A stretch of DNA of 64,000 nt. It comes from Bacteriovoracia bacterium (GTDB lineage: Bacteria > Bdellovibrionota > UBA1018 > JBFWNL01). Below are positions 19,123-42,046 of the stretch, piece by piece (the first letter of the stretch is position 1; each line of letters opens with the position of its first letter). The translations under genes were made by a program, and so were the position numbers. The notes under the pieces are model-generated. The model made no database searches, was not told the DNA's origin, and worked only from the letters and a program-made list of their open reading frames with translations. The DNA lies in NCBI GenBank assembly GCA_050251055.1, contig JBFWNL010000001.1, forward strand, positions 697,210-761,209, given 5' to 3'.

Positions 19123-20241
19123 TTACCCCGACGACTTCGGAGAAACCAGATTTTTGCGGATAGCGCGCCACGTCTTGAGCACGGGGGCCGGCACGATCCG
19201 TTTCACCAACCGCGAAGAGACGGGCCAGGCGTGGGAAGCCAGCGTCTCTAGCCACGCCCGCTTCCACGTCCGCCCAATACTTTGACTTAATGAGTCAGGC
19301 AATCCCGCCGCGCGGGCCACCCGATCTAGGCGTAACGCTCGTAGCGCCAGGGGAAGCTTGGCCTCGAAGAAAGCCGGATCCCGCAAACTCACGTCGGCGA
19401 CCGAGCCCAAGGCGATCTTCATTAAGGAATGCATAATATCGGACGCGAGGGGTTGCACGCGCGGATGCCGAAGCGCCGGTACAGCTTTCCGCACCAGGTT
19501 CGTGCCCGCTTGGCGGCGAAGCTCCACATGCTGGTTGGCGAAGGAAAAAGACGTCGCGTGATCGCGGAACCAGGCCTGAGGTTTTTCGAAGTAAACGACC
19601 TCATCGACCGCGGTCGCGGCTTTCAAGAACAGCATGTACTCGCCGAAGAGCCCGCGACCCGCCGGGTGCTCGCTCACGTCTACGTAGCCGCCCAACTCGC
19701 GCAGCAGGTCGATCTCGTAAACCCCCATCGAACCGATCGCGGGAACACGATACGCCAGGGCGTCCGCCGCGAACCGCGCCGCGGGAATCCGGCGATATTC
19801 GCCGACTCCTTTCGTCGCGAGCGCTGGCGCGGGCCCGCCATGCCAAGCCTGGAAATTTCCGTATACGACCCGCGCGCCTTCGGAGATCGCACGGTGGGCG
19901 TTGGCCAAGAAAAAAGGCGCATAGAGATCGTCGTCGGCCAGCCAGGTGAAATACTTCCCCTGCGCGAGCTCGAGCAGGCGATTCATATTCCCCCACTCGC
20001 CCAAGTTCTTCGGATGATTAATGATCCGAAAACGGTCGTCGCCCACCAGATCCAGGGCTTCAGGGGTCAGCGTGCGCGTGACGAGGTCGTTGCCAATGAG
20101 GACTTCGAAGTCCGTGAAGTTCTGGGCGCGGATCGACGCGATGGTTTCTTTCAAGAGCGCGAGGCGGTCGTAAGTGGTGACGCCGACCGAAAAGAAGGGG
20201 CTCAAAGCTTGTAGTTCCACCGGGAGGCGATCTCGCCGCAA
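19123..20241 (-). CDS. glycosyltransferase family 2 with extended C-terminal region
   Basis: FSVGVTTYDRLALLKETIASIRAQNFTDFEVLIGND...FTWLADDDLY (DxD). The start is uncertain because the annotated ORF overlaps the upstream gene by 40 nt. Confidence 0.75.
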   Translation of the reverse strand: MRRDRLPVELQALSPFFSVGVTTYDRLALLKETIASIRAQNFTDFEVLIGNDLVTRTLTPEALDLVGDDRFRIINHPKNLGEWGNMNRLLELAQGKYFTWLADDDLYAPFFLANAHRAISEGARVVYGNFQAWHGGPAPALATKGVGEYRRIPAARFAADALAYRVPAIGSMGVYEIDLLRELGGYVDVSEHPAGRGLFGEYMLFLKAATAVDEVVYFEKPQAWFRDHATSFSFANQHVELRRQAGTNLVRKAVPALRHPRVQPLASDIMHSLMKIALGSVADVSLRDPAFFEAKLPLALRALRLDRVARAAGLPDSLSQSIGRTWKRAWLETLASHAWPVSSRLVKRIVPAPVLKTWRAIRKNLVSPKSSG

Positions 20242-21065
20242 ACTTCGCGGAAGACCTTCTGGTGCAAGGGACCGAAGTGGTTCTGGTAATCCCCGACCAC
20301 GCCCTTGCGAAACGCCACGTTGCCCTTTTCTTCGCTGCCTTTGCGCCGGCCCGTGAGGCTTTCAAACGAAAAAACTTCAATCGCTTCGTCGATCAAGGCG
20401 TCGGACGCCTCGAAGTCGAGGTATTTCAAAATAGATTTCAACGCGGCCTTCGGATCCGAATGCAATGACTCGTAAGTCACTTTGTACGTGATGGAGATCT
20501 GTTCCCAAGCCTCATAGAACCCGCGCCAGCGCTTCGCCGTCACGTAGGCGTACGCGAGCTTGGAGCGTAAGAGCGACATCTTCAACGCCCGCAGGGGGTT
20601 CAAGCGCTCGCGTAGGCTGGGTCCCGCCACCGCGCCCGGGGCGTCGCGGCCGATCAGCATCGTTTGCGCGCCGGTTTCCACGTCGGTGCCCGTTTCGTTG
20701 CGCACGATCGCGCGCGCCTGGCCCGACACGGCCACGTCGCGCGGATCGCGCGCGAGCAAGATCACCTTATCGGTCAGGCTGAAGTACGGATCGGGAAGCT
20801 CGTGGGTCTTGATCACCATCGAGTACTTCGTCTTCTCGCGTCCGGGCAGGTTGCCCTGCGTGAGCGCGAGCGCCTTCGCGTTGCTGGAAAAAATAATCCC
20901 GCGCAGGAAAGTATAAGGCTCGATGTAACGCGCGTTTAGGATGTAGCAAAGCATGTAGCTGAGCCATCCCTGTCCGGAGCGGCCAAAGTCGGCGATGAGG
21001 ATCACGCGGTCGGAACCGTTGAGGAAGGGATGCTTGACGTTGCCGGGCTTGTTCTCTCGAGTCAT
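20202..21065 (-). CDS. PAPS-dependent sulfotransferase
   Basis: 5'-phosphosulfate-binding-loop-like ADFGRSGQGWL (compare PKSGTTW), IKTHELP, and 3'-phosphate-binding-like LLARDPRDVAVS (compare RNPKDVxVS). 287 aa. Confidence 0.8.
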   Translation of the reverse strand: MTRENKPGNVKHPFLNGSDRVILIADFGRSGQGWLSYMLCYILNARYIEPYTFLRGIIFSSNAKALALTQGNLPGREKTKYSMVIKTHELPDPYFSLTDKVILLARDPRDVAVSGQARAIVRNETGTDVETGAQTMLIGRDAPGAVAGPSLRERLNPLRALKMSLLRSKLAYAYVTAKRWRGFYEAWEQISITYKVTYESLHSDPKAALKSILKYLDFEASDALIDEAIEVFSFESLTGRRKGSEEKGNVAFRKGVVGDYQNHFGPLHQKVFREVCGEIASRWNYKL

Positions 21066-21830: not shown

Positions 21831-22766
21831 TTAAGCGCGCAGTCCCCGCAACAAATCAACCGTATCGGAAATTCCGCGATGGATATCACCTTGGGCGCGG
21901 AAGCCCTTCGCTTGGAAGCGCGCGCACGAAACTTCGTACGAGAGCTGGTTCATGATCTGGGTCTCGACGAAGTTGATCGTCAGGTCCGGTACGAACCCGC
22001 GGATCACATCGGTGATCTGCCGCACGGTGTAGTTGCCCGTCAGAACGTTATAGATGCGGCGATCGAAGATCCGCTCGCGCAGGATGAGTTCGATCGCGTT
22101 CACGGCGTCGCCCACGTCCAGGTAAGGCCGCTTCTGGTCATACGCGGTTTTCCAAACCGTAAGTGGCTTACCCGTCACGGCCTGCCAGCAGAACTTATTG
22201 ACCGCAGTGTGGAAGCGAATACCCGGCGAGATCCCGAAAATCGTACCGAAGCGGCAGACGATGAAAGGCAGCTCGGCTTTCTTTCCCAGCTCCGCGAGTA
22301 GGCGCTCTTCTTTAAGCTTCGTCTCCGCGTAAGGGCTTTGGGGATTCAGGTCGGACTCGGGACAGTCTTCATCGACCAACTCCGCCGCCGAACCGTAAAC
22401 ACTGGTCGACGAAAGGTAGAGCAACGGCACGCGCTGGCGCACGCACTCGTCGGCCACGCGCTGGGTGCCATAAAAGTTATTGCGCTCGACCTCGGCCTGG
22501 TTTTCGAAGCTGCCCGCGGCATTCGTGATCGCCGCGAGATGCAGGACAAAGTCAGCGCCCTTCACGAGCGGGCCAAGATCGATCTTCGTGACGTCGCCTT
22601 CGGTAAACCGATAGCGGACGCCTTCCGGTAGGTTGAAAAGCGAGCAGTAGCGCTGCGCCGACATATCATCGATGAGCGTAAGCTCCATCCCGGGAAACCG
22701 GGCCGGTAGCTCGCGAATCACGCGGGAGCCAATGTGCCCCAAGGCTCCGGTAACCAGGATTTTCAC
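21831..22766 (-). CDS. NAD-dependent epimerase/dehydratase-family (extended SDR) sugar ketoreductase/epimerase
   Basis: MKILVTGALGHIGSRV (GxxGxxG)...YLSSTSVYG...SPYAETKLKEE (YxxxK). Confidence 0.8.
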   Translation of the reverse strand: MKILVTGALGHIGSRVIRELPARFPGMELTLIDDMSAQRYCSLFNLPEGVRYRFTEGDVTKIDLGPLVKGADFVLHLAAITNAAGSFENQAEVERNNFYGTQRVADECVRQRVPLLYLSSTSVYGSAAELVDEDCPESDLNPQSPYAETKLKEERLLAELGKKAELPFIVCRFGTIFGISPGIRFHTAVNKFCWQAVTGKPLTVWKTAYDQKRPYLDVGDAVNAIELILRERIFDRRIYNVLTGNYTVRQITDVIRGFVPDLTINFVETQIMNQLSYEVSCARFQAKGFRAQGDIHRGISDTVDLLRGLRA

Positions 22767-23203
22767 GAGCGCGCTCCCTTCGCCTGCCCGCGGCGCCAGG
22801 CCAAGAACCCGTCGTAGTCCCGCAGGTAGTCAGACTCGTCATAATACTTGTCCGTGAGGACCATCAGCATCGTCCCTTCGTCCAGATAGGTTTGCTCCCC
22901 CCACACGGACGGCGGCAGATAGGCGCCCTGATCGGGCGAATCAAGGCGCAACGTACGCTTCTCTTTTCCGTCGTCGAAAACCAGGTCGCAGCGGCCACGA
23001 ATGCAAATCAGAAACTGCTGGCATTCTTTGTGGGCGTGCTTGCCGCGCAGGGCGCCGCCCGGAGTACCGTAGACGTAGAAAATGCGCTTAATGTCGAACG
23101 GGACGTTCCGCAGCTCCTCAAGCGCCACCAGGTAGCCGTTGGCTTCGGTGCCTATGCGCTTGAAGCGCTCGTGCTTGACGTCTTTTACCGTTTTCAGACC
23201 CAC
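22763..23203 (-). CDS. WxcM/FdtA-like dTDP-4-keto-6-deoxyhexose 3,4-ketoisomerase (cupin)
   Basis: GYLVALEELRNVPFDIKRIFYVYG...LRGKHAHKECQQFLICIRGRCDLVFDDG...LDSPDQGAYLPPSVW...MVLTDKYYDESDYLRDYDGF matches the FdtA/QdtA pattern, including the HAH pair. 146 aa. Confidence 0.82.
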   Translation of the reverse strand: MGLKTVKDVKHERFKRIGTEANGYLVALEELRNVPFDIKRIFYVYGTPGGALRGKHAHKECQQFLICIRGRCDLVFDDGKEKRTLRLDSPDQGAYLPPSVWGEQTYLDEGTMLMVLTDKYYDESDYLRDYDGFLAWRRGQAKGARS

Positions 23204-23224
23204 GCCACCGTCCCTCTTTGGCCC

Positions 23225-24463
23225 CTAGGCCGTGATGACCTGTACCTTCGGGACATACACGATCCACTTGCCGCCACTTTCCCGAAAGTCCTGCTCCTTG
23301 GCCGTAATCTCCTTGAAGTGGTTCCAGCCAAAGAGCAGCCCGTAGTCGGGATACTGCTCGCGGAACTTCTCGGAAGCCAGGATCGGGATGTGCTTGCCCG
23401 GGCTGAACTTACCCTGCTTGATAGGGGTCGAATCGCCGATGAACTCGATTAGGTCGGGAGTCAAATTGCAGTAGTTGATCACGGTCGTGCTCTTGGAAGT
23501 CGCCGCGTAACCGACGACGCGTTTGCCCTGCTGCTTGAGATCAACCAGGAGCTGGCGGAGCTCGCGCTTCGACGTCTCGCAGTTCTCACGGAAGCGTTCG
23601 TAGGTCTCCGCCTTATCGAGGCCGAGCTTCTTCTCAAACTCGACCTGCTCGCGCACGCGCTCGGAAACCGCTTGCACGCCCTTGCGCTTGATCACGTAGC
23701 GCATCGAACCCCCATGGGTCGTCTGCGGCTCGACGTCCACGATCTCCATGCCGTACTGGCCGAACATGTGGCCGACGGAGGCGACGGAATACAGGAACAC
23801 GTGCTCGTCGTAAATCTGGTCATAGGAAGTCTTCTGGATGACGTCGCCCAGGTACGGGTCTTCGAACATCACGGTGCCGTCCGGCCTCAACAACACGTCA
23901 ATACCTTCAAGCACCGAATGAATATAGCCGATGTGGCACATCACGTTCGCCGCCAGGAAGGCGTCCGCTTGCCCATTTTGGCTCACGATCCAGCGCGCGG
24001 TCTCGGCGTCGAAGAAGCGGGAGACGGTGTTTATGCCGCGGCCGATGGCGACGTCGGCGACGTTCTTCGAGGGCTCGATGCCCAGGTGGCGGATCTTCTT
24101 CTCGGCGAAGTTCTTGAGCATCACGCCGTCGTTGCTGCCGATCTCGACCACGAAAGGATCCTTCGCCTCGAGGTAATCCTTCATTACGTGGTCGGCGAAC
24201 TCCTTGAAGTGGATCGCCATGTGCTGGGACGTTCCCGAAAAGAACGCATAGTTCTCGTTAAACATGCGTTCGCGGTCCGGTTGCTCCATCAGCTGCACCA
24301 TCTTGCAGTGTGAACAGAAACCCACCTGCATCTCGAAGAAGTACTCGCGAGAGAAATCTTCGGGCTTTAGGAACCCATTAGCGATCGGCTGCTGCCCATA
24401 AGAGATGAACGGACTCACCGGGGCTTTACAGACTAAACATGGTTTTTCTTGCTTCGGATTCAA
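23225..24463 (-). CDS. NDP-hexose C-methyltransferase (TylCIII/EvaC-type, Zn-ribbon + class I MTase + C-terminal domain)
   Basis: N-terminal Cys4 ribbon (CLVCKAPV...CSHCKMVQL), ERMFNENYAFFSGTSQ, and SAM motif VVEIGSNDG. The C-terminal domain has a typical length (412 aa). Confidence 0.8.
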   Translation of the reverse strand: MNPKQEKPCLVCKAPVSPFISYGQQPIANGFLKPEDFSREYFFEMQVGFCSHCKMVQLMEQPDRERMFNENYAFFSGTSQHMAIHFKEFADHVMKDYLEAKDPFVVEIGSNDGVMLKNFAEKKIRHLGIEPSKNVADVAIGRGINTVSRFFDAETARWIVSQNGQADAFLAANVMCHIGYIHSVLEGIDVLLRPDGTVMFEDPYLGDVIQKTSYDQIYDEHVFLYSVASVGHMFGQYGMEIVDVEPQTTHGGSMRYVIKRKGVQAVSERVREQVEFEKKLGLDKAETYERFRENCETSKRELRQLLVDLKQQGKRVVGYAATSKSTTVINYCNLTPDLIEFIGDSTPIKQGKFSPGKHIPILASEKFREQYPDYGLLFGWNHFKEITAKEQDFRESGGKWIVYVPKVQVITA

Positions 24464-24498
24464 TTTCCGTCTCCTTCAAATAAAAACTAAGCGCGACG

Positions 24499-26397
24499 TC
24501 AACTGCAGCTCCGGCTGCTGACCTTCGCTAAAATGCCTTCCAAAATTTCCAACGCCTCACGGAACCCTTGTCCGCGGTTCAGGTGCCCTTGCCAAATTTC
24601 CGGGATAAAACCGGTATCTAGGCGATTCATGATCGCGAACAACGACGCGAAGTCGAGATCGCCTTGGCCGATCTGCACACCCTCGCCGGTCGAACCTTTC
24701 GAATCGGAAACATGCAGATAGGCGATGTGATCCAAGATGCGTTTCGTGAAGTCTTGCATGGAAATGCCGGCGTGGTGGCAGTAAAGGCCGGCGTGGGAGG
24801 TGTCGAAGCAAATCCCCCAACCCATGTCCTTCGCGAACTGGGCGATCTCGCCCGCGTCCATGAACACGGTGTTGTACCACTGACCGCCGAAGTACCAAGG
24901 CAGGGGGGGCATGTTCTCGACCAGGAGTTGCGTGCCCTCCGAAGGCATGGCTTCTAGGTTCTTCTTCAGAAGCTTATACTGATCGGTCTTATTGGATTCG
25001 GTCGGTTGGGCAAAATGCCCGCCCGGATGCACGACCACGCGCGGACCGCGGGGATCTTTCATGCCCTTGAACTTGGGCGCGAGTTCACGCGCCAAATTCA
25101 ACGTCCGCTTGAGCATTTCGCGGCTGAGCTCGGTGATCGCGGCGTCGCTCGAGGTGAAGTCAATGAGCTGGTCCTTATAATACTCGGGCGCGTGCACGAC
25201 TAAGTCTTGTTCGAACGTTCCCGCCGGTAGCCTATAGTCTTCGAGGTCCCGCCAAGTCAGATGGATCTCCACCAAACCCGGCTTGACGTCCAAGAACTCC
25301 TGGAAGTCGTTCAGGCGCCCCACGATCCCCCACTTCTTGGGAATAGAATAGGTACGCGGCTTCGCGGCCGGTCCGTCGACGACATCCTGCCGGAAAATAT
25401 AATCGTCCGCCGATAGGGCGCGATTCAGGGTCTTACCCAGGAAGTAATCAAGATCCATGGGCGAAACGCCCTTGGCCGGCGTCTTCGATGACAGATCGCC
25501 CGCCGTCAGCCGGTGGCCGACGGGCAGGTCCTTCGCCGCGACGAGCGACTTCGCCAAGCTGATGCGGTTATTCTTCTCGCCCTGGTTGTAAACCTTCTCG
25601 GCTTTGCCCAGGGACTCTTCGGCGACACGGACAGCATCGACCATTTCCTTGAACTCGGTAAAATTGAGCGACGAACGATGATCGGGACCGGACTGGTTGC
25701 GGTCACGCGTGATGTGGCGCTCGATGATGTCGGCGCCCAGGCCCAGCGCGGCCACGGTGGGAACAAAGCCCTGCTCATGGCCGGAATAGCCCACCCGCAC
25801 GCCCGTGATCTGGCGAAGCACCGGGATGTAGCGCAGGTTCAGATCGCTGAAGGAAGCGGGATAAGTGCTGTTACAATGCAGGAGCGCGAAATCCGCGCCG
25901 CGCGACTTGAGATATCCGACGACCTGCTTGATCTCGGCTTCCTCGCTCATCCCGGTCGAGAGGATGATCGGGCGGTTGAACTCCGTGATCTTCTCGAGCA
26001 GCGGCCGGTTCGTGAAGTCGGGCGAACCCACCTTGAAGATCCCCATGCCGATGCCGTTCAGGAACTCGGCCGATTTGACGTCGAACGGCGTCGCAAAGAA
26101 ATCGATGTCAAAACCTTTCGCGTACGCGAAGAGCTCCTTCATTTGATCGTAGCTAAGATGCGCCTTACGCAGCTCCGCCAGCAGGTACTGCGTCCCCTGC
26201 TCCGCTTTGCGCGAATCGGCCAACACCTGCTTGGTATAGAGCGTGTCGAGATCCCGCAACTGGGTCTTCACGGCGTCGGCGCCAGCTTCCGCCGCACCCT
26301 TAATCAGCGCCTTGGCTTCATCCATGCTGCCGTTATGGTTAATTCCAACCTCGGCGATGATGTAGACGCCGCGCTTGGATTTATACCGGGTGCTCAT
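24499..26397 (-). CDS. NeuB-type ulosonic-acid (sialic-acid-like) synthase fused to SAF domain and a xylose-isomerase-like TIM-barrel (AP_endonuc_2-like) domain
   Basis: aa ~10-290: VYIIAEVGINHNGSMDEAKALIKGAAEAGADAVKTQ...ILSTGMS...LLHCNSTYP...GYSGHE (NeuB). aa ~295-355: SAF-like (LVAAKDLPVGHRLTAGDL). aa ~365-632: LVEIHLTW...VVHAPEY...VVHPGGH...LLVENMP...CFDTSHA...LHVSDSKG, typical of sugar-phosphate isomerase/epimerase TIM barrels. Confidence 0.8.
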   Translation of the reverse strand: MSTRYKSKRGVYIIAEVGINHNGSMDEAKALIKGAAEAGADAVKTQLRDLDTLYTKQVLADSRKAEQGTQYLLAELRKAHLSYDQMKELFAYAKGFDIDFFATPFDVKSAEFLNGIGMGIFKVGSPDFTNRPLLEKITEFNRPIILSTGMSEEAEIKQVVGYLKSRGADFALLHCNSTYPASFSDLNLRYIPVLRQITGVRVGYSGHEQGFVPTVAALGLGADIIERHITRDRNQSGPDHRSSLNFTEFKEMVDAVRVAEESLGKAEKVYNQGEKNNRISLAKSLVAAKDLPVGHRLTAGDLSSKTPAKGVSPMDLDYFLGKTLNRALSADDYIFRQDVVDGPAAKPRTYSIPKKWGIVGRLNDFQEFLDVKPGLVEIHLTWRDLEDYRLPAGTFEQDLVVHAPEYYKDQLIDFTSSDAAITELSREMLKRTLNLARELAPKFKGMKDPRGPRVVVHPGGHFAQPTESNKTDQYKLLKKNLEAMPSEGTQLLVENMPPLPWYFGGQWYNTVFMDAGEIAQFAKDMGWGICFDTSHAGLYCHHAGISMQDFTKRILDHIAYLHVSDSKGSTGEGVQIGQGDLDFASLFAIMNRLDTGFIPEIWQGHLNRGQGFREALEILEGILAKVSSRSCS

Positions 26398-27376
26398 GAG
26401 CGTAATCCTTTTCCAAGCCTTGCTGGAACTTCATTTCGAACTGGATCATGCGATCGAGCATCTGCTCCAGATCGACGGTCGGTTTCCAGCCCAGATCCTG
26501 GCGGATCTTCGCGCTCGAGCCGTACACGGCGAGCGGCTCGTGCAACCGGAAGTACCGGGGATCCGCCTGCACGTGTTTCTCGAAATCGAGCCCCAGGCGG
26601 CCGAACACGGAGCGCAGCACGTGCTCGAGCGAGTACGATTGACCAGTGCAGATCAGGTAATCTTCGGGCTTGGCGGCCTTGAGCATGCGCCAGCAGGCAT
26701 CCACGTAATCGGGCGCGTAACCAAAATCGCGAATCACGCTCGCATTACCGAACTGCAAGGTCTTTTCCTTGCCGAGCTTGATACGGACGGCGGCGCGGAC
26801 CGCCTTCTTCGCCGCGAAGTTCTCGTGACGCCGGGGCGACTCGTGATTGAAGAACACGCCATTCACGGCGAAAAGTCCGTAGTTGCGCCGGTACGACGTC
26901 ACCATATGGTGCGCGTAAGCCTTGGTGCAGCCGTACGGGTTATACGGCGCGAGCGGGGTCGCTTCCGTCAGCGGCGTATCGCCCGACGGATAGAAAATCT
27001 CGGAGCTCGACGCTTGGAAGTAGCGGATGGAGCGATCGACCTTCAGGATCGCCTCTAACAAATGCGTGGGAATCACGCCCGAAGCGCGGAAGGTCTCGTC
27101 CACCATCTCCCACGACTTGCTGACGTAGACCTGCCCGGCGAAATTATAAACCTCGGTAGGCTTCACGGCCGCCAGGATTTCGGCTAGGTGGTGCGTTTCG
27201 TAGGACGAGTCCACGAGCTCGATCTTGCCTTCGAGGTGAGCGATGTTCAGCGAGAACCGGCGCGCAGGATCGCGCGTGATGCCGACGACGCGATAGCCGT
27301 TCTTCAGCAGGAGCTCTGACAGGTACGACCCGTCTTGGCCCGAGATCCCCGTAATGAGCGCGACCGGCTTTGCCAT
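26381..27376 (-). CDS. Gmd-family NDP-sugar 4,6-dehydratase paralogue
   Basis: ORF track 26381..27391. Likely start is ATG 27376 (MAKPVALITGISGQDGSYLSELLLKNGYRVVGITRDP). QASSSEIF, NPYGCTKAY and FNHESPRR match the Gmd pattern. This is the second Gmd-like gene in the window. Confidence 0.8.
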   Translation of the reverse strand: MAKPVALITGISGQDGSYLSELLLKNGYRVVGITRDPARRFSLNIAHLEGKIELVDSSYETHHLAEILAAVKPTEVYNFAGQVYVSKSWEMVDETFRASGVIPTHLLEAILKVDRSIRYFQASSSEIFYPSGDTPLTEATPLAPYNPYGCTKAYAHHMVTSYRRNYGLFAVNGVFFNHESPRRHENFAAKKAVRAAVRIKLGKEKTLQFGNASVIRDFGYAPDYVDACWRMLKAAKPEDYLICTGQSYSLEHVLRSVFGRLGLDFEKHVQADPRYFRLHEPLAVYGSSAKIRQDLGWKPTVDLEQMLDRMIQFEMKFQQGLEKDYAHEHPV

Positions 27377-28062
27377 CACCAGGCCGTCCATCCGCCGTCG
27401 ACGGGATACACACCGCCGGTGCAGTAAGAGGAGTCTTCCGCGACGAGAAACCGAACCAGGCCGGTGATTTCGTCGGCTTCCGCCATGCGGCCCATGGGCG
27501 TGCGCTCCGAATAAGCGCGCATGAACTTGTCATCCTGCTGATGCCGGATCCCGCCCGGCACGACGCAGTTCACGCGGATCTTCGGCGCCCAGTGCGTGGA
27601 GAGGTGCCGCGTGAGCTGCACGACCGAGGCCTTGGAAATTCCGTAGCCCAGATGCTTCTCGCCATCGTCATAGAGCGTGGGAATCGGCGAAGTCACGCCG
27701 TAAACCGAGGAAAAATTCACGATCGACCCTTGCTTATTCACCCGGGCGAACTCGCGACAGACCGAAAAGAGCGTGATCACGTTCGTCTCGAAATACTCGC
27801 GCAAGCTATCCAGCGTGATGTCCATCAGGCGCGTAGCCGGGCGCTGTCCGCCCGCCGCCACGTGATCGACCATCGCAAACAAGTTCACGAGCCCATCGGC
27901 CGGGTTCGCCGCGAACCACTCGCGGACGAACTTCGGATCGCGCAGGTCGTGCCCGAGAGCGAGGTCGAGTGCCAACACTTCGAACTCCGTCGCCAGCTTC
28001 GGGGTCAGGGCGCGGCCCACGATCCCGCGGGAACCGGCGATGATGACGCGTTTTCTCTTCAT
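27376..28062 (-). CDS. short-chain dehydrogenase/reductase (classical SDR)
   Basis: VIIAGSRGIVGRAL, NFSSVYG, YGISKASVVQL (YxxxK), VNCVVPGGI. 228 aa. Confidence 0.8.
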   Translation of the reverse strand: MKRKRVIIAGSRGIVGRALTPKLATEFEVLALDLALGHDLRDPKFVREWFAANPADGLVNLFAMVDHVAAGGQRPATRLMDITLDSLREYFETNVITLFSVCREFARVNKQGSIVNFSSVYGVTSPIPTLYDDGEKHLGYGISKASVVQLTRHLSTHWAPKIRVNCVVPGGIRHQQDDKFMRAYSERTPMGRMAEADEITGLVRFLVAEDSSYCTGGVYPVDGGWTAW

Positions 28063-29279
28063 TTCCCTTTGAACTTCTTGATCGTCTTACGCAGCACTTC
28101 GGCCTTCGTTTCGGCCAGGCGTACATCGCGATAGTTGGTCTTGAACTGCATCAAGCGCTTCTGGATGCGTTCCGCGACCGGGCAAAGCCCCGGGGCGTAG
28201 GAAACATCCTGATAGATCTGTGGCATGCGCGAGACAAACTTGCGTTCGGCGATCAGCGGTTCCAAATAAGGCACCGACCAGGCACCGTAGATCCCATCGC
28301 CGCCTTCTTGAATGTAGGCTTTGCGGAAATCCTGCCAGCTCACACCGATCGCTTCTTCGCCGTGATAGACGACGCCGAGCGTGTAGTACGAGTTATGGAA
28401 GCCGTCCGGCGTCTTCTGCGGGACAAGGTAGTCGCATTCCGACATAACATCCATGAAGAGCTTCGCGGATTTGATCCGCAGGTCCACCAAGTATTCCACC
28501 TGTTCGAGTTGCGCCATCGCGACCGCCGCGCAGAATTCCGGCAGGCGGTAGTTCCAACCCAGCGAATCGTGACGTTTGTAATTCGGGTCTTGGAAGACGT
28601 CCTGGTTTAAGCGGGTGCGGCCTTCGGAAGCACGCAGGTTTTTAAACCCATGCCCGCCGATCTTGCGTACCTTCTCGGCCAGGGCTTCGCTGTCGGTGAT
28701 GAGCATGCCGCCCTCACCGCAGGAAAGATGCTTGGTGTTCTCGAAGCTGAAGCTCGCGAGATCGCCGAACGTGCCGGCCAGCTGGCCCTTGTAGGTACCG
28801 AGCACGCACTGGGCGTTGTCTTCGATCACGGGAATATTATGCTTGCGCGCGATCTTCATGATCGGGTCCATGTCGGCCGGCAATCCGTAGAGCGAGACCG
28901 GCATGATGGCCTTGGTCTTCTTCGTGATCTTGCGCTCGAGATCGGCCGGATCCATGTTGAAGGTTTCCGCATCCACGTCGCAGAACACCGGGACCGCATT
29001 CGCGTGGAACGTAGAAGTGGTGTCCATGATCACGGTCAACGCCGGCGATATGACTTCATCACCCGCTTGCACCCCTACTGCTTCGAGGGCCGCATGCAAG
29101 GTAGCCGTGCCGGAGTTAAACGCCACCGCGTATTTCGTGTTAAATTTTTCGGCGAAAGCCTTTTCCAAAGTCTGCACCCAAGTGCCGCTCGTGGCGGACC
29201 AGGATTCGGAGCCCAACACCTTCGTCAGGTATTCCAGCTCGTTGCCTAGGTACTTGGAGGGATTTTCAATTTTTTGCAT
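28059..29279 (-). CDS. DegT/DnrJ/EryC1-family PLP aminotransferase (SpsC/LegC-like)
   Basis: AVAFNSGTATLHAAL...VISPALT...IEDNAQ. The Schiff-base lysine is present in FSFENTKHLSCGEGG. 406 aa. Confidence 0.85.
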   Translation of the reverse strand: MQKIENPSKYLGNELEYLTKVLGSESWSATSGTWVQTLEKAFAEKFNTKYAVAFNSGTATLHAALEAVGVQAGDEVISPALTVIMDTTSTFHANAVPVFCDVDAETFNMDPADLERKITKKTKAIMPVSLYGLPADMDPIMKIARKHNIPVIEDNAQCVLGTYKGQLAGTFGDLASFSFENTKHLSCGEGGMLITDSEALAEKVRKIGGHGFKNLRASEGRTRLNQDVFQDPNYKRHDSLGWNYRLPEFCAAVAMAQLEQVEYLVDLRIKSAKLFMDVMSECDYLVPQKTPDGFHNSYYTLGVVYHGEEAIGVSWQDFRKAYIQEGGDGIYGAWSVPYLEPLIAERKFVSRMPQIYQDVSYAPGLCPVAERIQKRLMQFKTNYRDVRLAETKAEVLRKTIKKFKGK

Positions 29280-30042
29280 TCCAGTTCTCCTTCAGGACTA
29301 ACTTGGTCTTGGCGACTTGGTTGTTTTTCCATTGCTCATGGAGATGACGGTTCAAGCCGATCACTTCGGGATGCTGATCCAGGTAAGCCACGATGTCGCG
29401 CAACCCGAAAGCGGGCTTCTGCGGCTTCAGCGCCTTCACGACGGCGTCGAAGAAGCGGAAGTCGTCTTCGTAATCCAGGGTCATGCGGATATCGTCACGG
29501 CAGAACACCGGGTCGGGCTTCTGCAGCAGCTCGTTGCGGAAAAGACCGGTGTCCTTGAAGTACACCCACATCATTTCGGTTTCTTCCGTGGCCTTGATCT
29601 CGCAAACCTTCTGGAGGGCGGCGGCGGAAATTCCGTAAGTGAAAGCGCCGCAAATTACTTCCGGGCTCTCGATGAAGTCGGCACCGGTACGATCGTGCTG
29701 ATCAAACGCTTGATCCATGAGTTCGGGCTCGCAAAACAGATCATCGCCGTCGGCGGTTACGAAGAAGTCGACGCCGTTGGCTTTACAGGCCCCGTTCCAG
29801 CGCTCGAGCTTGTCCTTCACGCTGCCTCGAAAAACCCGCACGCCGTTCTTTTCGGCGAGCTGGCAAAGCACGTCGTCTTCCGGCAGCGTCGTCGTGCAAA
29901 GAACCACGAAATTCGCACGCTTGGAGCGTAAGGCCCGTTGCATCACGTATTCGATCGTGGTGAGGCCCATGATCGTCTTCAATGCCTTCTGAGCCAAGCG
30001 CGAAGACCCCGTTCTTACGGTAATAAATATGGCTTTGGTCAC
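29266..30042 (-). CDS. acylneuraminate/SpsF-type cytidylyltransferase (CTP_transf_3-like)
   Basis: AIFITVRTGSSRLAQKALKTI...VVLCTTTLPEDDVL...FVTADGDDLFCEP, typical of CMP-sugar-acid synthetase/SpsF proteins. 258 aa. Confidence 0.75.
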   Translation of the reverse strand: MTKAIFITVRTGSSRLAQKALKTIMGLTTIEYVMQRALRSKRANFVVLCTTTLPEDDVLCQLAEKNGVRVFRGSVKDKLERWNGACKANGVDFFVTADGDDLFCEPELMDQAFDQHDRTGADFIESPEVICGAFTYGISAAALQKVCEIKATEETEMMWVYFKDTGLFRNELLQKPDPVFCRDDIRMTLDYEDDFRFFDAVVKALKPQKPAFGLRDIVAYLDQHPEVIGLNRHLHEQWKNNQVAKTKLVLKENWNAKN

Positions 30043-30170: not shown

Positions 30171-31925
30171 ATGCCACGCATACACGAACTGACTCAGTTT
30201 TTAGGTAAAAAGACGCTTTGGCTCATGGTCATGGGCGTCTTCACCGGCATAACGCTATTTGGCATCGAAATTTTTTTCGCGCAAACGATCGACGTTTTCC
30301 TGCAGGCGATTGGCGGCACGCCGGTCGAGTCGATCGCCCGTTCTTTTCTCATCACCTGGCTCCCCTTAAACGGATTCACGAGCGTCTTGGTGTTACTCGG
30401 GACTTTGGGCGCGATCCGCGGCCTACTCCAATGCGCGCAAGTTTACTTTCCCAGCCTCACGGCCGAAGAGCAACGCTTCGTCCATCGCGGTCGCGTCTTA
30501 CACTGGGCCTTTCGCAGTCATTCCGCCAATAGCGGCGAGATCATGACTTTATTCAGCGATACGACTTCGGGCGCGGCGACCGCGATCTTGAGCGTACAAG
30601 CTTTGGCCGCCCTGATTCCCGTCGCCCTGCTGCTCTGGGTAGGCTTGCTTCAGATCGCGATGATGCCTACCCTGATCGTCACCGGCTGCTTGGCGCTACT
30701 CGCGTTGGGGCTGAAGGCGCTCGATTCCATCACCCAACGCGCGGGCGTGCAGGTTGCGCGCGAAGGCGCCGCGATCAACGCCAACGTCCTGGCTAATATT
30801 AAAAACCTGCTGCTAATGCAGATTTACGGGACCGAAGCCAAGGAAGCGAATCGCGTGGAGGCAAGCCTCGCGAACTACTATCGCCACAGTCATCTCCAGC
30901 TCGTGCTCATGAGCGCGAAGTACGCCATCCCGCAGATCTTCGGCGTCGTCCTCATCTGCATCATCACCGCGGCCGCGCTCCAAGGCCCGGATCGTCTACC
31001 GGCCGGCGTGCTGATCGCCTATTTTTACCTGTTCGTGCGTTTCGTGCAGAACGTTTCGGAAATCCTGCGGCAGCTCTCTTTCATCGAATACTACAAGCCG
31101 CACCTCGTCCGCATGTTCGGCTGGTGGAAACAGAATGGGCAAGCCGCCCAAGCCTTACGGTTGGCGGTCCCATCCGCGCAGGTCCCTCCCCTACTCACCG
31201 GCCCGGGCGGCACGGGTTGGCGCCTTAAAGAGGTCGAGTTCCGCTATCCCGACGCGGCGGCTCCCGTGCTCCAAAAACTTTCGGCGGAGATCGCCCCGGG
31301 CGAAACGTTCGTGATCGTGGGCCCTTCCGGATCCGGCAAGTCGACGCTCGTGTCTTTGCTTCTAGGTAACCTTCAACCCAGCTCGGGGGATGTGAAACTC
31401 GTCGTGAAAGACGAGAAAGGTACGGAAAACTTCCCGCTCGCCGAGGTGCGTGCTCGTTTCTTAAAAACCGTCGGTTACGTCGGTCCCGAGAGCTTCCTGC
31501 TCGCCGGCACAATCCTGGAAAACCTGACGTATGGTTTGGATCAGATGCCTAACCCCGCGCAGATTGAGCGCGCCCTGCAGACGGCGGAATGCCAATTCGT
31601 GTTCGAACTCCCCAAGGGCACGGCCCATCTGATTTCCGAGCAAGGCCAGGGGTTGTCCGCCGGCCAGAAGCAACGTCTCGCCCTGGCGCGCGCCCTCTTG
31701 CGTAATCCCACAACACTGATCTTGGACGAGGCGACGGCGAATCTCGATCTCGAGACAGAACAACGGCTCGTGAACACTTTAAAGAAGCTCAAGCACAAGA
31801 TGACCATCATCGGCGTCACGCATCGCCAAGCGCTGCTCGAAATCGCCGACCATACGTTGCGTCTGGAAGAATCTACTCAAACAGCGGGTGGCCCGCGGCC
31901 ACGAATTCCCGCAAAAACTCTTTAA
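30171..31925 (+). CDS. ABC exporter, fused TMD-NBD half transporter (MsbA/PglK-like)
   Basis: About 6 N-terminal TM segments. Walker A is GPSGSGKSTL, the signature motif is LSAGQKQRLALARAL, and Walker B is LILDEATANLD. The 3' end overlaps the convergent gene by 53 nt. Confidence 0.88.
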   Translation: MPRIHELTQFLGKKTLWLMVMGVFTGITLFGIEIFFAQTIDVFLQAIGGTPVESIARSFLITWLPLNGFTSVLVLLGTLGAIRGLLQCAQVYFPSLTAEEQRFVHRGRVLHWAFRSHSANSGEIMTLFSDTTSGAATAILSVQALAALIPVALLLWVGLLQIAMMPTLIVTGCLALLALGLKALDSITQRAGVQVAREGAAINANVLANIKNLLLMQIYGTEAKEANRVEASLANYYRHSHLQLVLMSAKYAIPQIFGVVLICIITAAALQGPDRLPAGVLIAYFYLFVRFVQNVSEILRQLSFIEYYKPHLVRMFGWWKQNGQAAQALRLAVPSAQVPPLLTGPGGTGWRLKEVEFRYPDAAAPVLQKLSAEIAPGETFVIVGPSGSGKSTLVSLLLGNLQPSSGDVKLVVKDEKGTENFPLAEVRARFLKTVGYVGPESFLLAGTILENLTYGLDQMPNPAQIERALQTAECQFVFELPKGTAHLISEQGQGLSAGQKQRLALARALLRNPTTLILDEATANLDLETEQRLVNTLKKLKHKMTIIGVTHRQALLEIADHTLRLEESTQTAGGPRPRIPAKTL

Positions 31926-34089
31926 TCGGCGGCGCGACCATGTGGGCCGGCACGCCCGCCGCGCTCAGGATCGCCTCGCGCACCTGGGTCGCGCTCAAAG
32001 ACTCACGGCGCGAAGCCGGGTGAGCGCAACTCTCGGTCACTTGCCCACAATCCGCGCAGTAGTAAGCGGCTTCAAATAGGATCGGCTGGATGCCGATGTC
32101 GCCTAGTTTACCGAAAATTTCCTGGGAAGCGTTGGCGGAATAATAATTCCCGACGCCCGTGTGATCGCGGCCCACCACGATGTGGCTGCAGCCGAAGTTC
32201 TTGCGGCAGATCGCGGTGAAGGCGGCTTCGTGCGGGCCCGCGTAGCGCGGATACGTATTGAATACTCCCAAGACCGCCGGATACGGGGCATAGAGATCTT
32301 CCTTCAAGGCGACGTCATACGCGCCCAAGATCGCCGGCGCCGTGAAGTCACCCGCTTTTTTTGGCCCGATCACGGGGCTGATGAAGAGCGCGTCCGCGTT
32401 CGCGCGCTTGAGCGCCTCACGCTGGATAAAGAGATGGCCCGCGTGCACGATGTTGCGGGTATGGAACGCCACGATCGTCCGCCAGCCCATCGTCGAAAAG
32501 AGCTTGCGCGACTGGCGCGGAGTCAGAAAATGCGGGGACGGCGCGGCGGAGCGCTCGAACGCCCGGAAAACCTCGCCGCTGATAATAAACTTACCCTTAT
32601 CCCGAAAAGCCGTGAACCCGGGATGCTTCTGATCGTGGGTACCGAACCAGCGCTCGCCGACGGAGACGAGGTCGATCTCCTCGACGGCCGCGACTTTAAG
32701 GTATCCACAGGCACGCGCTTCCCCGGGCGCCTGGAGCGCAACCCATTGGCCCGCTTTCACCGCCGGCTTATCCACCGACTGCAGGAGAATCGGCATCGTC
32801 CAGATCTCGCCGCTCGCGCAGCGGTTATCGTCGACGACACGCGCGAGCTCGGCCGCGCCCATGAAGTGCTTAATCGGCGAATAGACGCCTTCCACGATCT
32901 GCAGGACGTCGAGCGCCGTGCGCTCATCGATCGCGAGCTTTGGCCAGGTGGCGGCATTCGCCACGGTTTGACCGGGCGGTGTCGGTTGCTCGACCAGCGT
33001 TCCTCCGTGGGGCGCGATCAATCCGCCGTCGGAGCTACTTCGAATGAATTGGAGCGTGGTCTGATCGCTCCCCGCTTGGACTTGACCCGCGTAGCTGCCC
33101 ACTTCGCGGATCGTCTGGCGGATCATGCGTACCGATTCGACGGGGTACTTCCCGATCGCGGTTTCGGCGGCGAGCACCAAGCCCGAGGCGCCGTTTAAGA
33201 GCGTGTTGGTTACGTCGTTAATCTCGGCGCGGGTGGGCTGAAGATTGTTGAACATGCTTTCGAGGAGGTTCGTGGCCACATAAGTGGGCGTACCGGCCGC
33301 GGTCGCGCATTGAGTGATGTATTTTTGGGCAAGCCCGATCTTCCAGATGTCCACATCGCGCGAGAGGTCGCCGCGGTCGATGAGAATGGCGTCGCTGACG
33401 CCCAAGATCTCGGCCAAGTTGGCGAGCGCGGCCGTGCTTTCGACCTTTGAAATGATCGTGACGGGACAGCCGAAAAACTCGCGCAGCCACTTCACATCGG
33501 CGCCCCGAGAAGCGAACGAAAACGCCACGTGTTTTAGCCCGTGCTGCTTGGCAATGGCGAGCGCGGCCCGGTCTTTTTCGGTGAAGGGCGGCAGTTCGAC
33601 CAGACGGTCCAGGCTTACCCCTTTGTTGCTGCCCACTAACCCGCCCGCTAGCACGCGGCCGTGCGCTCCTTGAGCATCCACGGCCGTGACTTGAATCACC
33701 GCGGAGTTGAAATCCAGATGCAAGACATCTCCCGCATGCAGGAGCTGCGCGGGATCGATGGGATAAAGCGGGATCACGGAATCGGTGCCGGTTTCTTGCG
33801 CGCCGACGAACCGTACGCTCGCTCCCCGCCTAAGGGTGGTGGTCCCTTCTCCCATACGGCCGGTACGGATCTGTGCGCCTTCGGTATCCACACAAAGGGG
33901 CTTCTTCGTCCACTGCGAGACGTTGCGGATAATCTCCGGCAGTTTCTCGGCCGGGGTGTGAGACATATTGATGCGAAAGACATCCACCCCTTCGCGATCC
34001 ATCGCCTCGACTTTACGGCGATCCATGGACGCGGGTCCTAGGGTCACCAGCAATTGAATATCGGCGGGCTTTTCTACCGGAAGCTTCAT
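31873..34089 (-). CDS. pyruvate-kinase-like barrel domain fused to ATP sulfurylase (sulfate adenylyltransferase)
   Basis: N-terminal half: VDVFRINMSH, VDTEGAQIRTG, IISKVES, LIDRGDLS, QPTRAEINDV, AAETAIGKYP (PK A/B domains; no PK C domain). C-terminal half: PUA-like region, then AFHTRNIVHAGH, GPKKAGDF, VGRDHTGVGNYY (Sat). Single uninterrupted 738-codon ORF. Confidence 0.85.
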   Translation of the reverse strand: MKLPVEKPADIQLLVTLGPASMDRRKVEAMDREGVDVFRINMSHTPAEKLPEIIRNVSQWTKKPLCVDTEGAQIRTGRMGEGTTTLRRGASVRFVGAQETGTDSVIPLYPIDPAQLLHAGDVLHLDFNSAVIQVTAVDAQGAHGRVLAGGLVGSNKGVSLDRLVELPPFTEKDRAALAIAKQHGLKHVAFSFASRGADVKWLREFFGCPVTIISKVESTAALANLAEILGVSDAILIDRGDLSRDVDIWKIGLAQKYITQCATAAGTPTYVATNLLESMFNNLQPTRAEINDVTNTLLNGASGLVLAAETAIGKYPVESVRMIRQTIREVGSYAGQVQAGSDQTTLQFIRSSSDGGLIAPHGGTLVEQPTPPGQTVANAATWPKLAIDERTALDVLQIVEGVYSPIKHFMGAAELARVVDDNRCASGEIWTMPILLQSVDKPAVKAGQWVALQAPGEARACGYLKVAAVEEIDLVSVGERWFGTHDQKHPGFTAFRDKGKFIISGEVFRAFERSAAPSPHFLTPRQSRKLFSTMGWRTIVAFHTRNIVHAGHLFIQREALKRANADALFISPVIGPKKAGDFTAPAILGAYDVALKEDLYAPYPAVLGVFNTYPRYAGPHEAAFTAICRKNFGCSHIVVGRDHTGVGNYYSANASQEIFGKLGDIGIQPILFEAAYYCADCGQVTESCAHPASRRESLSATQVREAILSAAGVPAHMVAPPIKEFLREFVAAGHPLFE

Positions 34090-34619
34090 ACGAAGGCCTC
34101 TCCACCCGAGCCGGTCGGCACCCGGCTCAACACGTGTTTCACCAAGGCTTGGCCGATCTCTTCACGCGATGTCTTTTCGGTGTCAAAAGTAAACTCCGGA
34201 TTGGCCGGGACTTCAAAAGGGTCGTCGATACCGGTGAAATTCTTAATCTCCCCCGCCCGGGCGCGAAGATAAAGCCCTTTAGGGTCCCGCTGCTCACAAA
34301 CCTCCAATCGGGTGGCGAGATAAACTTCCGTGAAATCTTTGCACATGCCCCGCACGGCCGCACGCGCTTCGGCATACGGCGAAATAAACGAAGCGACCAC
34401 CACCACGCCGTGCTTCTCGAGCATGCTCGCCACGTACCCCGCGTACTTGATGTGCCGGTCGCGGTCAGTGCGCGTAAACGACGTTTCGGGAAACACCGCA
34501 CGAATGGCATCCCCGTCGAGGTGCTCCACGCGCAGTCCCTTGTCCTTCAGTTGACCCGTAACATAAGTCGCCAGGGTCGTTTTTCCGGAGCCTGAAAGCC
34601 CGGTTAGCCAAACTACCAT
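34086..34619 (-). CDS. cysC: adenylylsulfate (APS) kinase
   Basis: VVWLTGLSGSGKTTLA (P-loop), LDGDAIR, FISPY, RDPKGLYLRARAGEIKNFTGIDDPFE. ATGA overlap with the downstream PK-Sat gene. Confidence 0.92.
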   Translation of the reverse strand: MVVWLTGLSGSGKTTLATYVTGQLKDKGLRVEHLDGDAIRAVFPETSFTRTDRDRHIKYAGYVASMLEKHGVVVVASFISPYAEARAAVRGMCKDFTEVYLATRLEVCEQRDPKGLYLRARAGEIKNFTGIDDPFEVPANPEFTFDTEKTSREEIGQALVKHVLSRVPTGSGGEAFV

Positions 34620-34707
34620 TGTGGGCGGATATTAGTTTGGCGGCTTCGCCCTCGTCAAGCTTGGAAATCCTTGAGTTTTCCCAGGGTTTCCCAGATGATG
34701 ACGCTCC

Positions 34708-35235: not shown

Positions 35236-36445
35236 TTCCGAGTTGATCGATCAGATAGTCGGCGATCGCAAGCGACGCCGTTGCTCCAGGGCTTGGCGCA
35301 TTCAGTAGATGAAGCGCGCGCTCGGCTCTTTCGATACGAAAATCTTGAATCAACTGACCGCTCCCATCCATCGCTTGGGCGCGGATGCCGGAGTGCCCGG
35401 CTTCCAAATCTTCGGGTTGGATCTCCGGGACGAGTCGCTGCAACGCCCGACAAAACGCCGACCGACTGAGCGATTGCTTCAGCTCTGAAGCGATCATCGC
35501 GCGATGCCGACTGGCGAACCGGTATAACCCCGAAAAAAAAACCGCCTCTCCGAAATCCGCCAAATTGAAATCGCGCTTCCCGTAGCCTTCCCGCGCGAGC
35601 GACAAGATCGCGTTCGGCCCCGCATCGAGCGATCCGTCGATCCGACGGGTGAAATGCACGCCTAAAAAAGGAAACTTTGGATCTGGCAGTGGATAAAGGA
35701 GATGCCTCACCAGATGCTTACGCGATTCCTTCACGCGGAAATAATCACCGCGAAACGGGACGATTCGTACCGCGGGCTCCAAGCCCGCCGAACGGGCCAC
35801 CCGATCACATTGCAATCCCGCGCAGTTGATCAGATGCGAAGCGCGAAAATCCCCGCACGTGGTGGCGACTACGTGGCCGTGGCCGGCACCGGGCCGCTCC
35901 CGGTGGAAACCACGTGCTTCGGCGCCGACGATCACCTCGCCCCCGGCCTCGCCGATCTTCTGGGCCAAACGACTCGCGACTTCGCGATAGTCCACGATAC
36001 CCTCCTCGGGAACGTGCAGGGCACCCAGTCCCCGAGCGTGGGGTTCGATCTCTCCGATCTCCTCCGCCTGGAGCAGCCGCAAGCCGCGCAGCCCATTCTG
36101 CTGACCGCGCTCCATCGTCGCGGGCAGGCGGGCTAGCTCTTCGGAGGTCGTGGCTACCATCAGTTTTCCGCAGATTTCGTGGGGAATCGAATTTTCGCGA
36201 CAGAACTCGACCATCTGACGGACGCCATTGACGGCGAGCCGGGCCTTTAACGAACCGGGCACATAGGAAAGACCGGCATGGAGCACTCCGCTGTTATGCC
36301 CCGTCTGATGTTGGCCTACTTGAGGTTCTTTTTCGAGGACGCGCACGAAGGTGGCGGGATCACGCCGCTGCAGGCGATAGGCGGTGGCCAAGCCAATGAT
36401 GCCACCCCCTATAACTGCCACCGACCGACTCAAGCGCGTATCCAC
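35228..36445 (-). CDS. FAD-dependent oxidoreductase, L-2-hydroxyglutarate oxidase (LhgO)-like
   Basis: VAVIGGGIIGLATAYRL (dinucleotide fold), HQTGHNSGVLHAGLSYVPGSLKA, and C-terminal LLNAPSPGATASL, as in LhgO/YgaF-type flavoproteins. Confidence 0.75.
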   Translation of the reverse strand: MDTRLSRSVAVIGGGIIGLATAYRLQRRDPATFVRVLEKEPQVGQHQTGHNSGVLHAGLSYVPGSLKARLAVNGVRQMVEFCRENSIPHEICGKLMVATTSEELARLPATMERGQQNGLRGLRLLQAEEIGEIEPHARGLGALHVPEEGIVDYREVASRLAQKIGEAGGEVIVGAEARGFHRERPGAGHGHVVATTCGDFRASHLINCAGLQCDRVARSAGLEPAVRIVPFRGDYFRVKESRKHLVRHLLYPLPDPKFPFLGVHFTRRIDGSLDAGPNAILSLAREGYGKRDFNLADFGEAVFFSGLYRFASRHRAMIASELKQSLSRSAFCRALQRLVPEIQPEDLEAGHSGIRAQAMDGSGQLIQDFRIERAERALHLLNAPSPGATASLAIADYLIDQLGTT

Positions 36446-41927: not shown

Positions 41928-42046
41928 GACTAAGTTAGTCGCATCTTTTGCTTGCAGTTTCAATCGGTTCGACAGCGGAGGTGGCGCCACGCAGCAACTC
42001 GGATTGCATCGCGACAAGAGTCTTGAGGGGGCGCCCCCAAGAAGGT

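Follow-up and report, generated by a model that had tools for sequence, protein, structure and literature searches.

Sulfate activation is thermodynamically uphill, and its known drivers are the hydrolysis of pyrophosphate (PPi), the phosphorylation of adenosine 5'-phosphosulfate (APS) and the GTPase of CysN. Here, we describe a gene of a Bacteriovoracia bacterium (assembly GCA_050251055.1, contig JBFWNL010000001.1) that encodes a pyruvate kinase (PK)-like domain fused to an ATP sulfurylase, and that overlaps cysC, a gene for APS kinase. The fusion gene (PK-sat) lies within a stretch of 64,000 nucleotides (positions 697,210 to 761,209 of the forward strand), hereafter referred to as the window. 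In E. coli and many other bacteria sulfate is activated by CysDN, a GTPase-coupled enzyme in which CysD is an ATP pyrophosphatase resembling reductases of 3'-phosphoadenosine 5'-phosphosulfate (PAPS), CysN is an EF-Tu-like GTPase, and the coupling is conformational. CysDN is comparable to the system proposed here in that the activation of sulfate is tied to the cleavage of another high-energy compound, but its folds are unrelated to those of the fusion, on which neither Pfam nor NCBIfam matched a CysD (PAPS_reduct-like) or CysN (EF-Tu-like GTPase) domain.

The homo-oligomeric ATP sulfurylases (Sat) of Thermus thermophilus (1V47) and Methanothermococcus thermolithotrophicus (8A8D) share with the fusion a PUA-like and a catalytic domain, the RN, HxxH and GRDH motifs and a C-terminal Cys/His cluster, but they lack an N-terminal PK-like domain and their motif starts with Gln in place of the His that is invariant in the fusion family. 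Other enzymes of sulfate activation are likewise fused or coupled, namely the Sat/APS kinase of Aquifex aeolicus (2GKS), metazoan PAPS synthases and fungal 1I2D; the APS-kinase-like C-terminal domain of the fungal ATP sulfurylase is regulatory, not catalytic. None of these has a PK-like domain, and the APS kinase of the window is a separate, translationally coupled gene. Canonical PKs such as PykF and PKM have the A+B fold in common with the PK domain of the fusion (35–38% identity in matches of canonical length), as well as all ligands of phosphoenolpyruvate (PEP), metal and nucleotide; they differ in having a C-terminal allosteric and tetramerisation domain, and the fusion genes always occur in sulfation cassettes rather than in glycolytic contexts. 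Stramenopile and haptophyte fusions of ATP sulfurylase to pyrophosphatase have been interpreted as pulling the unfavourable equilibrium, and the fusion partners surveyed in the same work were APS kinase, APS reductase and pyrophosphatase, with no mention of PK (PMC2275785). As in the fusion family, the helper is joined to the sulfurylase; however, that helper is eukaryotic and removes PPi, whereas the one described here is bacterial and is proposed to remove ADP and to regenerate ATP from PEP. Laboratory PAPS cascades (PMC9885120) also combine ATP sulfurylase and APS kinase with PK and PEP, as an engineered mixture of separate enzymes as opposed to a natural fusion.

An earlier note on the window, made from the DNA letters and a list of translated reading frames, knew of no description of this architecture. 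In agreement with this, no PK-sulfurylase fusion and no PK-like gene in sulfation cassettes was found in the full-text literature (subscription papers were outside its scope), in which PK, among the papers retrieved, appears solely as a coupling enzyme; the curated NCBIfam families and the PDB held no such fusion either. What we report is a PAPS-synthesis module with an apparently undescribed, widely conserved PK-like component. On balance, we favour the reading that this component would give the module a built-in, PEP-driven means of removing ADP and regenerating ATP.

Results

Organisation of the fusion gene

The fusion is encoded on the minus strand by one open reading frame (ORF) of 738 codons that runs from an ATG start without interruption (Table 1); a reading of the same interval on the plus strand was rejected, as that frame is full of stops. 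The proposal of the earlier note that a single ORF joins PK-like and ATP sulfurylase domains was borne out by translation, by Pfam and by an independent assembly, and the motifs that it had named are all present in the translation (FRINMSHT, DTEGAQIRTG, IISKVES, DRGDLS, PTRAEINDV, ETAIGKYP, HTRNIVHAGH, GPKKAGDF and VGRDHTGVGNYY). The PF00224 match, with 200 bits against a cutoff of 30, extends over profile positions 5–328 of 328, after which the chain passes directly from the PK A domain to PUA_2. The C-terminal alpha/beta regulatory domain of PK (PK_C), which had likewise been reported as absent, gave no Pfam match on the protein, and nor did the APS kinase domain PF01583. A model of the fusion computed by AlphaFold2 (AF2) with the family alignment as input was confident throughout, linker included (predicted local distance difference test [pLDDT] 93.2; predicted template modelling score [pTM] 0.87), and its halves superposed separately on PKs and on ATP sulfurylases, the latter with a target-normalised Foldseek TM-score of 0.93. 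No solved structure spanning both halves was found in the PDB by sequence and Foldseek searches. NCBIfam has no model specific to the fusion family, and all of its PK and Sat models score under their cutoffs.

The TGA stop of cysC and the ATG start of the fusion share an ATGA overlap. This overlap had been described before with the strand left unstated; both genes are on the minus strand, and the order is therefore cysC first and PK-sat second. The window CysC scores 187 bits with the TIGR00455 equivalog-domain model, exceeding its cutoff of 138.7. A scan for promoters and terminators at the locus gave nothing exceeding chance.

Conservation of the architecture

Relatives with the same PK, PUA_2 and ATP-sulfurylase architecture make up more than 120 protein clusters (defined at 90% identity), with 42–52% identity, in a collection of 5.8 billion proteins. 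A few clusters add a C-terminal APS kinase according to their Pfam architectures (P0002, P0024 and P0109). Relatives are encoded in at least 566 GTDB species genomes (566 stretches, with one genome per species scanned), so that rarity of the architecture is not supported. The best 80 of these 566 stretches were used as genome loci for further comparison, and in 80/80 the full-length fusion occupied one uninterrupted ORF, of 655–773 aa in 79 and of 920 aa in the remaining locus. Bacterial hosts include Patescibacteria (candidate phyla radiation, CPR), Bacteroidota, Ignavibacteria, Verrucomicrobiota, Planctomycetota, Omnitrophota, Chloroflexota, Actinomycetota, Alpha- and Deltaproteobacteria, Marinimicrobia, Elusimicrobia and Calditrichota, together with one DPANN archaeon. 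Nearly all of the host genomes are metagenome-assembled, and the names given to the relatives in databases are only 'pyruvate kinase', 'sulfate adenylyltransferase' or 'hypothetical'.

The chance that the fusion is an artefact, in which a missed stop or a frameshift has joined two genes, is negligible, and we regard it as ruled out. A second, independent assembly (run SRR27751815) encodes a protein identical over 738 aa with the same neighbours, the stop or frameshift that the earlier note had named as a possible refutation was not seen there or in any of the 80 single-ORF loci, the architecture recurs in the protein clusters, and the AF2 model is confident across the linker. Across 120 relatives, mean pairwise identity was 54% for the PK half and 52% for the Sat half, and the divergences of the two halves correlated (r = 0.88). 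Such equal conservation and co-divergence are what would be expected of one old fusion that has evolved as a unit.

Genomic context and the ATP sulfurylase half

Neighbours in the 80 genome loci were clustered and the clusters were named with Pfam. APS kinase was directly adjacent to the fusion in 32–37 of the 80 loci, mostly just downstream, and in five loci it was just upstream, as in the window. Sulfotransferases were encoded in 46/80 loci and CysQ-like phosphatases of 3'-phosphoadenosine 5'-phosphate (PAP) in 9/80; where at least 5 kb was available on both flanks (53 loci), 40 had a sulfotransferase, APS kinase or CysQ. Other recurrent neighbours were NeuB, UDP-GlcNAc 2-epimerase, cytidylyltransferase, DegT, glycosyltransferases, Wzx/Wzy and ABC exporters. 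The presence of APS kinase, sulfotransferases and CysQ therefore points to sulfate, APS and PAPS as the substrates, and counts against a substrate other than sulfate.

The best PDB matches to the sulfurylase half were 8a8d (2.4e-67) and 1v47 (1.4e-65). Its motifs read H543-T-R-N..H549..H552, GPKK..DF and G-R641-D-H643-T-G, and the domain contains a Cys/His cluster (C678, C681, C688 and H690). Residues R545, N546, H549, H552, R641, D642 and H643 are invariant in the 120 relatives, with G-R641-D-H643 kept. In the yeast enzyme the leading Gln of the classical QxRNxxHxxH motif contacts the sulfate group; 120/120 relatives have His at this position. The family consensus is HTRNV-x-HRGHE, and the window protein reads HAGHL where the consensus has HRGHE; its A550 and L553 are outliers, as the relatives have Arg/Lys in 101/120 and Glu in 118/120 at these positions. 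Of the three departures from the classical motif to which the earlier note had drawn attention, the change of Gln to His is thus family-wide, whereas those at Pro and Arg are not family traits. The model for bifunctional Sat/APS kinase, NF004040, scored 171.6 against a cutoff of 669.

Homology and context identify the PUA and catalytic module as an ATP sulfurylase of the Thermus/Methanothermococcus type, predicted to make APS from ATP and sulfate. That the module instead adenylylates some other substrate, for which the earlier note had seen room in the divergent motif, is very improbable: although the family-wide His and the unusual A550 and L553 of the window would fit such a change, the residues listed above are invariant, the consensus keeps the Arg of HRGH, the closest structures are bona fide ATP sulfurylases, and the genes nearby encode sulfotransferases, CysQ and an APS kinase that passes its equivalog cutoff. 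The Campylobacter pathway of the O-methyl phosphoramidate (MeOPN) type has a CysC-like kinase; a pathway of this kind was set aside, given the intact motifs of the sulfurylase, the presence of sulfotransferases and CysQ, and a window CysC that scores above the cutoff of the APS kinase equivalog model.

Two further gene families were observed in this context. A PF00884 gene ('sulfatase'/alkaline-phosphatase superfamily) is the +1 neighbour of the fusion in seven genome loci (e.g. L027:12707-14365), where it also matches Phosphodiest, and abuts or overlaps a PK-like gene in L082:109-978 and L090:273-1871; it could encode a sulfatase or a transferase of phospho-groups. A family of ~650–740-aa proteins adjoins PK-like and APS kinase genes (L084:6028-8004, L050:12166-14382, L061:12693-14840, L024:13091-15178 and L062:7953-9995). 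It had no Pfam or PDB match and only a weak NCBIfam match, to 'PFTS motif polysaccharide biosynthesis protein', and its L050 member carries an N-terminal APS kinase domain. This family may be an unrecognised PAPS-using enzyme.

The PK-like domain

PDB pyruvate kinases matched the PK-like domain at about 1e-46, Foldseek also matched PKs, and the strands of the B-domain lid are present in the AF2 model. Residues were mapped by alignment to solved PKs and their conservation was read from the 120 aligned relatives. The ligands of PEP, Mg, K and nucleotide together with the catalytic Lys are R39, N41, S43, H44, D68, R75, K156, K215, E217, D241 and E309 in the fusion (R73, N75, S77, H78, D113, R120, K207, K270, E272, D296 and E364 in human PKM), and these positions are invariant or conserved in 119/120 relatives. 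The retention of catalytic and metal residues that had been suggested from the motifs therefore holds, and extends to the nucleotide ligands. Because the C domain is absent, near-invariant residues are altered and the equivalog cutoff is not reached (see below), the domain is not a canonical pyruvate kinase in the strict sense, yet it most likely works like one.

The PK-like subfamily outside the fusion

The PK-like part alone was searched against 1.84 billion representative proteins. Besides the fusions of ~720 aa, four other forms were found with the same signature (D-x-EGAQ-x-RTG, IDRGDLSRE and LVLAAETAIG). These were triple fusions of PK, PUA, Sat and APS kinase of ~900–930 aa (P0206, P0222 and P0228, from reading the sequences), standalone PK-like proteins of 324–358 aa, a 488–527-aa form that retains, after the PK-like domain, a short remnant of the catalytic domain of the sulfurylase, and one PK-like protein with a CBS pair, as judged by reading its sequence (P0143). 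In the 488–527-aa form (P0131, P0132, P0133, P0135 and P0160; e.g. L085:8001-9512) the remnant is ~150 aa, and the alignment shows that PUA and every sulfurylase motif have been lost while the PK residues are invariant. The gene of this type in L085 is near a Sulfotransfer_3 gene and radical-SAM/B12 genes. A separate protein, P0239 (1051 aa), appears by eye to consist of two canonical PK domains in tandem and an adenylate-kinase-like domain, and would be another case of PK fused to a nucleotide-handling enzyme.

Standalone PK-like genes had an APS kinase gene immediately downstream, within glycan clusters, in 3/3 long contigs examined, and no sulfurylase was detectable inside 8 kb in these three contigs. 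With the standalone proteins as seeds, a scan of metagenomes yielded another 55 standalone loci, 38 of which had at least 600 bp downstream; APS kinase was directly adjacent on the same strand in 25 of these 38. A recurrent marine order was sulfotransferase, TauE/SafE-family permease, standalone PK-like gene and APS kinase (L108, L110, L132, L136 and L140), with no ATP sulfurylase found inside 8 kb of these cassettes. Because standalone PK-like genes adjoin cysC where no sulfurylase is detected, the constant partner of the subfamily, as judged from gene order, is not the sulfurylase itself but the PAPS pathway, above all APS kinase.

These forms also bear on whether the PK-like domain might be mainly a scaffold or a sensor, acting in oligomerisation or in PEP-sensing regulation. 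Enzyme-derived regulatory domains are known in ATP sulfurylases, with fungal 1i2d among the PDB matches, and the pTM of the AF2 model suggests a fixed packing of the two modules; nevertheless, we consider such a role improbable, since neither the catalytic Lys nor the ligands of metal and phosphate vary among the 120 relatives or in the standalone forms, and the PK half is conserved as much as the Sat half. Moreover, the PK-like domain persists standalone and beside a decayed Sat, and its survival without a functional Sat is the opposite of what would be expected of a Sat accessory.

A proposed PEP-driven PAPS module

Homology and context indicate that the cysC/PK-sat pair is a dedicated supply of PAPS for glycan sulfation, in which the sulfurylase module is predicted to convert ATP and sulfate to APS, CysC to phosphorylate APS to PAPS, and the sulfotransferase of the island to consume the PAPS. 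In the mechanism proposed for the PK-like domain, this domain, as an active phosphotransferase, would use PEP to convert the ADP released by APS kinase to ATP at the site of synthesis; it would thereby keep ADP low and contribute the free energy of PEP to a sulfate activation that is unfavourable by itself. With the PK C-terminal domain absent, the usual allosteric control would be gone. A dead-end E-ADP-APS complex is known for APS kinase, and the sulfurylase binds ADP as it does APS (PMC3734648). When the PK/PEP regeneration system was left out of a PAPSS1 cascade run in vitro, the peak of PAPS was practically absent (PMC9885120).

We infer this role from several features of the family. The standalone PK-like subfamily adjoins APS kinase even without sulfurylase, the PK residues that bind PEP, metal and nucleotide have all been retained, triple fusions of PK, Sat and APS kinase exist, and some variants keep every PK residue though their fused Sat has lost its motifs. 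Recycling of ADP had been put forward in the earlier note, and it is the best-supported mechanism, strengthened by the adjacency of PK-like and APS kinase genes where a sulfurylase is missing.

Several observations weigh against ADP recycling by a PK-type reaction. Residues that are near-invariant in PKs are altered in essentially all family members (E118→Q, A293→D, G298→S, S362→A, G363→A and K367→I/V, which in fusion numbering are Q73, D238, S243, A307, A308 and I/V312), and K115→E and P117→A are further fixed differences from canonical PKs. T286, the equivalent of the proposed proton-relay T328, is T in 85/120, N in 26/120 and S in 8/120 relatives. Because near-invariant residues have changed and the T328 position is variable, the substrate or chemistry on the pyruvate side may differ from that of canonical PK. 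The score with TIGR01064 (pyruv_kin) is 242.6 bits against a cutoff of 306.4, every PRK pyruvate kinase model is also under cutoff, and on the sulfurylase side TIGR00339 (sopT) gives 247.2 against 322.95 and NF003166 gives 318.1 against 387. About half of the fusion loci are without APS kinase inside 10 kb. Finally, a housekeeping PK would normally suffice for ADP recycling, and the advantage of a dedicated copy is assumed.

The altered positions, the variable T286 and the TIGR01064 score under the trusted cutoff would also fit a PK-like domain that is active but carries out another phosphoryl transfer in the sulfation pathway, such as the PEP-driven re-phosphorylation of PAP or another nucleotide, or the phosphorylation of a small acid with ATP. 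The marine cassettes in which a sulfotransferase, TauE, a PK-like gene and cysC occur without sulfurylase could be read in the same way, as the PK-like enzyme there might do more than recycle ADP. We judge such a transfer unlikely, although it is the alternative that we take most seriously: every ligand of the PEP phosphate, of Mg and K and of the nucleotide phosphates is kept, CysQ-like PAP phosphatases in 9/80 cassettes indicate that PAP is degraded rather than recycled, and we know of no precedent for a transfer of this kind.

The glycan island of the window

A polysaccharide island takes up the whole of the 64-kb window. The island encodes a priming sugar transferase, a Wzy-like protein, several glycosyltransferases, GDP-mannose dehydratase-type enzymes, DegT aminotransferases, a NeuB-type synthase, a CMP-type cytidylyltransferase, C- and other methyltransferases, carAB with a carbamoyltransferase, and an ABC exporter. 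The sulfotransferase listed in Table 1 is the only recognisable one within the window, and it matches, at 2.7e-75, the sulfotransferase that in a CPR locus (L014) lies two genes away from the fusion; it is likely to use the PAPS that the cysC/PK-sat pair would supply. Neither a second pyk, sat or cysC nor an additional sulfotransferase was found within the 64-kb window. Homologues of the ABC exporter are beside the fusion in 11/80 loci. The sugar-nucleotide genes comprise a CMP-type cytidylyltransferase, a DegT aminotransferase, an SDR, a 4,6-dehydratase, a NeuB fusion, a C-methyltransferase, an FdtA-like isomerase and an epimerase.

Table 1. Features of the fusion gene and of the surrounding island, in window coordinates.
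Feature	Position	Strand	Basis or remark
PK-like/PUA/ATP sulfurylase fusion, 738 aa	31873..34089	(-)	Single uninterrupted ORF
PK-like barrel, A+B domains, aa 12-320	33130..34056	(-)	PF00224, 6.6e-59, 200 bits
PUA-like domain of ATP sulfurylase (PUA_2), aa 358-507	32569..33018	(-)	PF14306, 1.2e-27
ATP sulfurylase catalytic domain, aa 522-728	31906..32526	(-)	PF01747, 1.3e-61
A550, L553 of the fusion, beside the HxxH motif	32434-32442, 32425-32433	(-)	120-relative alignment
cysC, 177-aa APS kinase, upstream of the fusion	34086..34619	(-)	PF01583, 4.9e-51; TIGR00455, 187 bits
Sigma-70-like match immediately upstream of cysC	34629..34658	(-)	Weak; 1 site vs 0.7 expected
Sulfotransferase (Sulfotransfer_1)	20202..21065	(-)	PF00685, 2.1e-17
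Sugar-nucleotide genes	21831..30042	(-)	Pfam; same families near the fusion in other genomes
ABC exporter, convergent with the fusion, 3' ends overlapping by 53 nt	30171..31925	(+)	

Additional features were observed in the island. The NeuB fusion (24499-26397, minus strand) is a 632-aa protein that joins a NeuB-type nonulosonic acid synthase, with an SAF domain, to a xylose-isomerase-like TIM barrel (AP_endonuc_2), and a 657-aa protein (61994-63967, minus strand) combines a DegT-type aminotransferase with a family-2 glycosyltransferase region. At 46086-52651, carB and carA (carbamoyl-phosphate synthase) adjoin a NodU/CmcH-type carbamoyltransferase, and several methyltransferases are encoded elsewhere in the island, which suggests that its glycan is carbamoylated and methylated as well as sulfated. 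Ten sizeable ORFs were without a Pfam match, including four consecutive ones (547, 676, 266 and 552 aa); the ORFs without a match are at 7075-13264 (minus), 15482-17999, 36430-37479 (minus), 39304-40959 (plus), 41960-43147 (minus) and 44371-45903 (minus). A transporter of the Na_H_Exchanger family is encoded at 59760-61100 (plus), and the same family is found a few genes from the fusion in L028:12248-13615 and in three other loci; TauE-family permeases also recur near the fusion. Transporters of either family could be linked to the supply of sulfate.

Discussion

A bolder reading than plain ADP recycling is that the PEP-powered module is a third widespread driver of bacterial sulfate activation, next to PPi hydrolysis and the CysN GTPase, with a new reaction of its own. 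We consider this doubtful. The PEP module would be obligate in glycan-sulfation cassettes across more than a dozen phyla, CPR included, and the altered active site (Q73, D238, A307/A308 and the variable T286) would reflect that new reaction, possibly a PEP-dependent re-phosphorylation of PAP or of another adenine nucleotide. Sulfate could then be activated catalytically, which would also explain the marine cassettes that lack a sulfurylase.

Under the favoured reading, in which the PK-like domain would recycle the ADP of APS kinase, a natural PEP-using partner would add a new coupling strategy to those known for sulfate activation, and would mirror the in-vitro PAPS syntheses devised by chemists. 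A self-regenerating PAPS synthase would also be directly useful for enzymatic sulfation. For the members of the family, annotation as a glycolytic pyruvate kinase or as a plain sulfate adenylyltransferase is a mislabel that can distort metabolic reconstructions, for example when a glycolytic PK is credited to a minimal genome. The sequence signature of the family also singles out a large group of gene cassettes, as yet uncharacterised, for the sulfated glycans of cell surfaces, mostly in uncultured lineages, among them CPR, Omnitrophota, Planctomycetota and Marinimicrobia, and in marine metagenomes.

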